Positions 28,567 to 28,656 of a stretch of 64,000 bases of DNA are shown here, one piece after another; within the stretch, counting starts at the first letter, position 1, and each line of letters opens with the position of its first letter. The DNA is taken from positions 1-64,000 of IMG/VR virus record IMGVR_UViG_3300021255_002052; one strand, written 5' to 3'. Origin of the DNA: a virus (Duplodnaviria; Caudoviricetes). The notes beneath the pieces were generated by a model. The model searched no databases. It was given only the letters and a program-made list of their open reading frames with translations, and was not told where the DNA came from. Position numbers and translations under genes: made by a program.

Positions 28567-28656
28567 AGCCCAGTAGCATAACGGTAATGCACCGGTCTCT
28601 AAAACCGTGATACTCCTTTGAAGAGGGTTATCTCAGTTCGAATCTGAGCTGGGCCG
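28567..28656 (+). tRNA. amber suppressor tRNA (anticodon CTA) with long variable arm
   Basis: AGCCCAG/CTGGGCC acceptor, GCAT-AACGGTA-ATGC D arm, CGGT-CTCTAAA-ACCG (CTA at 28599-28601), ~23-nt variable region, CTCAG-TTCGAAT-CTGAG, G73. Confidence 0.9.

Follow-up and report, generated by a model that had tools for sequence, protein, structure and literature searches.

A phage amber suppressor tRNA whose long variable arm apparently displays the anticodon loop of tRNA-Gln

Phages in which TAG is recoded have been described together with their suppressor tRNAs, the charging of these tRNAs by the host and the control that recoding exerts on late genes (Borges et al., bioRxiv 10.1101/2021.08.26.457843; Yutin et al., 2021, PMC7886860; PMC10607447). 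The late position of a suppressor tRNA gene as a feed-forward switch, which the original prediction proposed for the tRNA of this study, is part of the published model of Borges et al. (10.1101/2021.08.26.457843), who also stated as an open question how stop-reading phage tRNAs are charged by the anticodon-dependent enzymes of the host (10.1101/2021.08.26.457843). The Gln identity set of Escherichia coli consists of G73, U1-A72, G2-C71, G3-C70, G10, U34, U35, G36, A37 and U38, and activity can drop by as much as 1e5-fold when these determinants are mutated (PMC9976931). A long-armed amber tRNA-Ser accepts Gln once positions 1-72 and 3-70 are changed (PMC9976931). In an engineered amber suppressor, a pseudo-anticodon in the variable arm improved charging, the synthetase in that case carrying an additional anticodon-binding domain (PMC7590224). 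Similar to the code 15 phages, in which TAG is reassigned to Gln, the phage of this study possesses its own CUA tRNA, early genes in the standard code and TAG-rich late genes and, as far as its record extends, lacks a phage synthetase, host charging being assumed. Different from the present description, however, the papers on code 15 phages annotate such genes merely as suppressor tRNAs, and neither a long variable arm nor an anticodon-like second arm is mentioned in the texts searched.

The window analyzed here covers positions 1 to 64,000 of a virus record of 109,771 bp, which is estimated to be ~60% complete. With translation table 11, the region from ~29.4 kb on breaks into short ORFs, and readthrough of TAG restores long genes (Table 1). 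One of them is an ORF of 7,494 codons from window position 47873 to genome position 70357, which contains 96 in-frame TAG codons and is open only with TAG readthrough. The tRNA(CUA) gene is the sole CUA tRNA gene of the whole 110-kb record. It was originally predicted to lie 12 kb from the main tRNA array and just upstream of the terminase genes, which is correct: the array is at 13.4-16.2 kb, 12.3 kb away, and TerL follows 2 kb downstream. Table 11 also splits the exonuclease gene upstream of the tRNA in two ORFs, and a full-length match to phrog_284 needs both of its TAG codons read through. Because this upstream gene already carries two in-frame TAG codons, the tRNA gene sits within the recoded block rather than at its head, and recoding begins upstream of the tRNA. 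On the + strand, no sigma-70-like promoter was found between the gene for the HU-like protein and the tRNA gene. Two portal proteins, P0002 and P0003, are 98 and 91% identical to that of this phage, and a tblastn search with TerL against the INPHARED phage records returned distant terminases only. In addition, three tRNA-like genes of the window (14979-15066, 15295-15378 and 15876-15991) have inserts of 14-41 nt in the anticodon region; these genes score 41-42 bits with Rfam, and two of them were called by ARAGORN only with the intron option (Met CAT and Thr GGT). The late region also contains a group I intron at 37366-37735 (RF00028, 61.9 bits).

Table 1. Features in and around the tRNA(CUA) gene (window coordinates).
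Feature	Position	Strand	Remarks
Exonuclease gene, 2 in-frame TAG	26057..27271	+	phrog_284, 1e-53, residues 36-401 of the reading with TAG as Q
HU-like DNA-binding protein gene, standard code	28215..28523	+	PF00216, 1e-16; phrog_379; directly upstream of the tRNA
Hairpin	28540-28559		After the HU-like gene, before tRNA(CUA)
Acceptor 5' strand AGCCCAG	28567..28573	+	Pairs with 28649-28655 (CTGGGCC strand)
Decoding anticodon arm CCGGU-CUCUAAA-ACCGU	28592..28608	+	27:43 is C·U; anticodon CUA at 28599-28601
Variable arm, putative pseudo-anticodon arm	28609..28631	+	23 nt; inner stem CUC/GAG, outer AUA/UAU pairs
Variable-arm loop CUUUGAA, 7 nt	28616-28622	+	Closed by C-G, U-A and C-G
Putative pseudo-anticodon UUG (Gln)	28618-28620	+	Equals genuine tRNA-Gln anticodon loops from family contigs
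ORF with 7 in-frame TAG	29435-30715	+	Downstream recoded late gene
TerL, 9 in-frame TAG	30618-32774	+	Downstream recoded late gene
Portal, 5 in-frame TAG	32771-34324	+	Downstream recoded late gene

The tRNA gene is 90 nt long (28567..28656, + strand), forms a 7/5 cloverleaf and does not encode CCA. ARAGORN called a tRNA with the anticodon CTA at 28566-28657. Rfam model RF00005 matched 28567-28656 with 51 bits (E value of 5e-8 for the window; gathering score of 29) over the full model, positions 1-71, with ~20 bases inserted relative to the model in the variable region. By sequence, the acceptor end has A1·C72, G2:C71 and C3:G70, followed by the discriminator G73 at 28656. The D arm, with a stem of 4 bp and a loop of 7 nt, is of class I type without the extended D loop of class II, and it possesses G10 as well as C11:G24. 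The T arm is CTCAG-TTCGAAT-CTGAG. The CUA anticodon is flanked by U33 and by the purine A37 in a loop of 7 nt, and the genome needs UAG to be decoded, as expected for an amber suppressor. ARAGORN and RF00005 establish the tRNA, and they support the original prediction of an atypical amber suppressor, whose structural list (CTA anticodon, A1:C72, C3-G70, G73 and a variable region of ~23 nt) was correct throughout.

Compared with the identity set of E. coli tRNA-Gln, the tRNA has G73, a weak and breakable 1:72 in the form of A1·C72, G2:C71, G10, U35 and A37, but its 3:70 is C:G rather than G:C, and position 38 is A. The decoding anticodon is C34 U35 A36, with G36 of the U35/G36 pair of determinants lost. 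The complete U-U-U-G-A set of tRNA-Gln is found only in the variable-arm loop at 28617-28621. The variable region of 23 nt also departs from the 4-5 nt of class I tRNA-Gln, and the long arm was rightly regarded as abnormal for a tRNA-Gln. Two other assignments were considered and rejected. "Pyl" is the default name that ARAGORN gives to any CUA anticodon, and tRNA-Pyl features a variable loop of 3 nt, a small D loop and an elongated anticodon stem; the tRNA of the window has a variable region of 23 nt, a D loop of 7 nt and an anticodon stem of five positions. Allo-tRNAs have an acceptor/T branch of 8/4 or 9/3 (PMC5389517), compared with 7/5 here.

The meaning of TAG was assessed with two sister phages (G001 and G002, portals ~72% identical), whose six-frame ORFs were aligned at the codon level with TAG kept as X. 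TAG of the phage in this study aligned to Q at 33/82 and 30/71 sites in the two sisters, compared with a Q background of 3%. The sister codons at these Q sites were CAG (22 and 25) and CAA (11 and 5). One TAG site in the portal gene corresponded to Q in 99 of 104 full-length homologs. When each TAG site was counted once over all sequences compared, the majority aligned residue was Q at 35/94 sites and S at 3/94, with an S background of 6.7%. These alignments establish Gln, not Ser, as the meaning of TAG in this phage, and the earlier impression that protein contexts favor Gln is upheld. The sisters themselves differ from this phage. Their own TAG aligns to E in this phage at 37/78 and 37/77 sites (GAA/GAG), an apparent TAG-to-Glu reassignment. 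Both have short CUA tRNAs, at 118774-118846 in G001 (L004-L010) and at 141110-141184 on the minus strand in G002 (L011-L019), and the D arm of the former is presumably tRNA-Glu-like, in comparison with the sequence of E. coli tRNA-Glu.

Three scans of collections of phage and metagenome contigs were carried out with a pattern that specified the CUA anticodon loop with some of its stem and, after a long gap, the T loop, and that left the arm unconstrained. They returned 126 distinct tRNA(CUA). A class I body like that of the window tRNA and the same decoding anticodon arm were found in 95 of them, which share ancestry, so that the following counts are not independent events: 1:72 was U-A in 35, U·U in 21, A·C in 18, A-U in 14 and G-C in only 3; 2:71 was G-C in 89/95; 3:70 was CG in 74 and GC in 16; and position 73 was G in 71 and A in 20. 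TAG sites in the loci of the family tRNAs mostly aligned to Q (152/680 informative sites; background of 2.8%). A separate group of 25 tRNAs combined G1-C72 with a D arm of class II type and comprised Ser- or Leu-like suppressors. Among the latter, Leu-like class II tRNA(CUA) with G1-C72 and A73 were found in L058, L167 and L049 (metagenome and MAG contigs), where TAG mostly aligned to L (17/54 informative sites), hinting at TAG-to-Leu decoding in these loci.

Insertion of serine, with a supD-like suppressor whose long arm and G73 would be read by SerRS, is scarcely credible for the tRNA of the window. Its long arm, G73, G2:C71 and C11:G24 would suit SerRS, and the original prediction had named the long arm and G73 as SerRS determinants. 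The D arm of class I type, however, speaks against a tRNA-Ser, as do the few TAG sites that align to S and the separate position of the genuine Ser/Leu-like tRNA(CUA) with G1-C72. Moreover, the stem of the arm is interrupted by a mismatch or bulge; in engineered tRNAs, SerRS was blocked when the arm stem had a bulge (PMC7590224). A tRNA-Ser of supD type was rejected on these grounds.

The variable arms of 88 of the 95 class-I-bodied relatives form a hairpin with a 7-nt loop of the form N-U-(C/U)-U-G-N-N, and the motif U-(C/U)-U-G was found in the arms of these 88/95 compared with 1/25 of the class II tRNA(CUA). The loops were CTCTGAA (43), TTCTGAG (13), CTTTGAA (8), CTCTGAC (4) and several rarer ones. 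In the same contigs, genuine tRNA-Gln genes have the anticodon loops CTTTGAC (26), CTCTGAC (6), CTTTGAA (5) and CTCTGAA (1). Because the 7-mers match those of genuine tRNA-Gln from the same contigs, the arm loop is identified, at the level of sequence, as a tRNA-Gln anticodon loop. In its U-Y-U-G core only the wobble base varies, between C and U, both of which give Gln anticodons. A motif-first scan with CTCTGAAG...GTTCGAATC, which is confounded by genuine tRNA-Gln(CUG) and by ordinary short tRNAs with a chance occurrence of the motif in the anticodon stem and variable loop, gave true arm matches on CUA tRNAs only. YUG-type arms were also present in a second CUA subfamily, which differs in its anticodon stem, and no Glu pseudo-anticodon (YUC arm) was found in this subfamily. 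The window tRNA combines a class I body, a stop-reading anticodon, an N-U-Y-U-G-N-N loop and covarying closing pairs, and it belongs to a large family of such pseudo-anticodon-arm suppressor tRNAs, which is apparently undescribed.

Apart from C35U, the decoding arm of the window tRNA equals that of tRNA-Trp(CCA) genes that phages carry at the same loci. The global identities between the armless body and ~1,500 phage tRNAs were 0.75-0.82 for Gln, Trp, Arg and others alike; no isotype stands out, so that Trp and Gln origins of the body are not separable. A blastn search of the INPHARED phage records with the window tRNA found phAss-1 only. Phage phAss-1 (OQ749652.1, 62445-62532; PMC10607447) bears a family member that is identical to that of locus L022 and is annotated as tRNA-Sup-CTA. 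It also has, in L181, a short Gln-like tRNA(CUA) at 1411-1482 and a long-armed one at 1489-1576, in tandem and 6 nt apart, both annotated as tRNA-Sup-CTA. Many arm stems of the family are CCUC/GAGG-like, and their 3' strand resembles a Shine-Dalgarno sequence (AAGGAGGU in L027), probably as a side effect of the pyrimidine/purine make-up of the stem.

The fold of the arm was examined by covariation among 55 distinct arm cores aligned without gaps. With the register of the 7-nt loop, the five closing pairs had a covariation of 0.515, compared with 0.205 after shuffling (0/500 shuffles as high) and 0.11-0.28 for slid partners. The three inner pairs exchange among C-G, G-C, U-A and A-U. A rival register with a 5-nt loop and a CCUC/GAGG-type stem, which is the choice of RNAalifold on a MAFFT alignment, had a covariation of 0.239 and scored below the version slid by -2, which corresponds to the 7-nt register. 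The covariation decides for the 7-nt loop over the 5-nt loop. The conserved and covarying mimic of a Gln loop, specific to CUA tRNAs, is a direct observation. Thermodynamic predictions for isolated arms differ from it: the arm of the window alone prefers a register with a UGAA tetraloop (-3.2 vs -1.1 kcal/mol for the 7-nt loop), and the 7-nt loop is the MFE structure in only 14 of 88 isolated arms.

A parallel case was found in opal suppressors. A scan with the same anticodon-arm scaffold but with the anticodon UCA led to viral contigs (L294-L343). All 25 distinct long arms of G73 tRNA(UCA) carried U-C-C-A in a loop N-U-C-C-A-A-A. Their stems have 5 bp, of which the four outer pairs are formed in 25/25, with many compensatory changes. 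The 7-mer CTCCAAA is the anticodon loop of phage tRNA-Trp genes, and the arm of tRNA(UCA) copies the anticodon arm of tRNA-Trp, a CCA mimic that is directly observed. None of 15 Sec-like tRNA(UCA) had a Trp-type arm. In the G73 tRNA(UCA), 1:72 is mostly A1-U72 (for instance, L316 8998-9051 and L340 11938-11992). TGA in the tRNA(UCA) loci is enriched for W, at 25 of 110 informative sites compared with a background of 0.9%. Since 25/25 UCA arms carry CCA and 88/95 CUA arms carry YUG, the CUA anticodon goes with YUG (Gln) and the UCA anticodon with CCA (Trp). TGA in the same loci (L294-L343) aligns to Cys (28) about as often as to Trp (25); the Cys positions could be Sec/Cys sites, mutational neighbors or a second meaning.

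These comparisons bear on whether the arm is merely tolerated or stabilizing. GlnRS might use the acceptor end and U35 alone, as in supE and su+7, and the loop might be a relic, for example of a duplication of the anticodon arm. The class I enzyme GlnRS does tolerate long arms, since amber tRNA-Ser becomes a Gln acceptor by acceptor changes alone (PMC9976931). Armless short Gln-like tRNA(CUA) such as that of phAss-1 exist, and the MFE structure of the window arm does not expose the 7-nt loop. A relic, however, would not be expected to keep its loop despite compensatory exchanges in the stems, to vary in the U-Y-U-G core only at the wobble position and only between two Gln anticodons, or to track the assigned amino acid, as the CCA of the UCA suppressors does. 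We therefore regard a relic or a merely tolerated arm as unlikely. Because phAss-1 has a short Gln-like tRNA(CUA) beside the long-armed one, the arm is, judging from these genes, not indispensable for reading TAG as Gln.

The reading that we prefer, with a little better than even confidence, is that the tRNA is a working phage amber suppressor that inserts Gln at UAG and that its arm gives the host GlnRS the anticodon determinants of tRNA-Gln. The tRNA would possess two anticodon-like arms in tandem. The canonical CUA arm would decode UAG on the ribosome, and the variable arm would display the tRNA-Gln anticodon loop C-U-U-U-G-A-A (UUG). By supplying U33-U34-U35-G36-A37, the arm would restore the U35/G36 determinants that were lost when G36 became A36. 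Together with a Gln-type acceptor end (pre-broken 1:72, G2:C71, G73) and G10, it would offer GlnRS its determinants, and the host GlnRS would charge the tRNA with Gln, with neither a phage synthetase nor processing involved. A conserved and covarying hairpin that shows a Gln anticodon loop points to the ordinary Gln-charging machinery, and it is most likely that a synthetase reads the mimic. In class II tRNAs, the tip of the variable arm is normally directed away from the place at which a class I synthetase would bind the anticodon. Because this geometry is unfavorable, reading of the arm by GlnRS would need an alternative conformation. The arm may swap into the anticodon position by alternative stacking, or it may tether the anticodon-binding domain.

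GlnRS (TIGR00440, over the cut-off) was found in three of five MAGs with family tRNAs, namely those of Lachnospiraceae and Acutalibacteraceae and a "Mollicutes" bin. The arm might instead be read by a factor other than GlnRS, such as a non-discriminating GluRS acting with GatCAB, an enzyme that modifies U34 or A37, a phage protein, or an anticodon nuclease of the host, with the arm as its decoy. A weak 1:72 is also a determinant for GluRS2 and amidotransferases (PMC9976931), the tRNA-Glu-like CUA tRNA and TAG-as-Glu reading of the sisters bring Glu/Gln machinery into play in the clade, and no GlnRS was seen in the other two of the five MAGs, though those MAGs are incomplete. Given, however, that three of the five candidate hosts have GlnRS, that the Trp parallel has no transamidation route and favors direct recognition by a synthetase, and that no candidate phage factor was identified, involvement of such a factor is improbable.

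The original prediction held that the tRNA needs either a dedicated phage synthetase or removal of the 23-nt insert before use. It saw no synthetase or release factor gene in the window, which holds for the whole 110-kb record, and the search of the rest of the genome for GlnRS, RF2 or RtcB that it proposed found no match for class Ib synthetase (PF00749), release factor (PF00472) or RtcB (PF01139) in this ~60% complete record. A gene in the missing part of the record could still provide such a function, and the window does contain further insert-bearing tRNA-like genes. The arm, however, mimics the Gln anticodon loop, and a spacer destined for removal would not retain a Gln loop and covarying stems. 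Bacteria are not known to excise an insert from the variable region of a tRNA. Neither the need for a dedicated synthetase nor that for processing is thus supported, and both are very unlikely in our assessment.

More generally, phages may have evolved split-identity tRNAs, in which one arm reads the stop codon and a pseudo-anticodon arm (YUG for GlnRS on CUA tRNAs, CCA for TrpRS on UCA tRNAs) shows the synthetase the anticodon that it expects. This would be a general and natural way to reassign codons without a new synthetase, to which we give an even chance. A natural suppressor tRNA whose variable arm resembles an anticodon arm was not found in the full-text literature (recoding papers, a review of tRNA identity and a review of non-canonical tRNAs, with subscription journals outside the search). 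If split identity is true, the presence of decoding and identity anticodons on separate arms would answer the question of host charging for Gln and Trp. The tRNAs would also form a new class of non-canonical tRNA and, for synthetic biology, a natural, ready-made design for codon reassignment with unmodified synthetases.

Similar to supE (tRNA-Gln CUA) and su+7 (Gln-charged tRNA-Trp CUA) of E. coli, the tRNA of this study has a CUA anticodon, G73, a weak 1:72 and G2:C71 and is associated with insertion of Gln. The likeness to su+7 extends to the decoding arm, which here is a phage tRNA-Trp(CCA) arm but for C35U. Different from the window tRNA, however, supE and su+7 are class I tRNAs with a variable loop of 4-5 nt and without a second anticodon-like arm. 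Class II tRNAs (Ser, Leu and bacterial Tyr) and allo-tRNAs share with it a long helical variable arm and, in the case of Ser, G73. They differ from it in that the tRNA described here has a class I D arm, a 7/5 branch, a weak 1:72 and a conserved sequence in the arm loop, and its TAG does not mean Ser, Leu or Tyr. Finally, in the engineered suppressor with a pseudo-anticodon (PMC7590224), the tip of the variable arm also mimics the cognate anticodon arm and recruits an anticodon-binding domain of the synthetase. That tRNA is synthetic, is built on a 9/3 allo-tRNA chassis and needs a synthetase with a fused extra domain (PMC7590224), whereas the phage tRNA is natural, has a 7/5 branch and presumably uses an unmodified host GlnRS.
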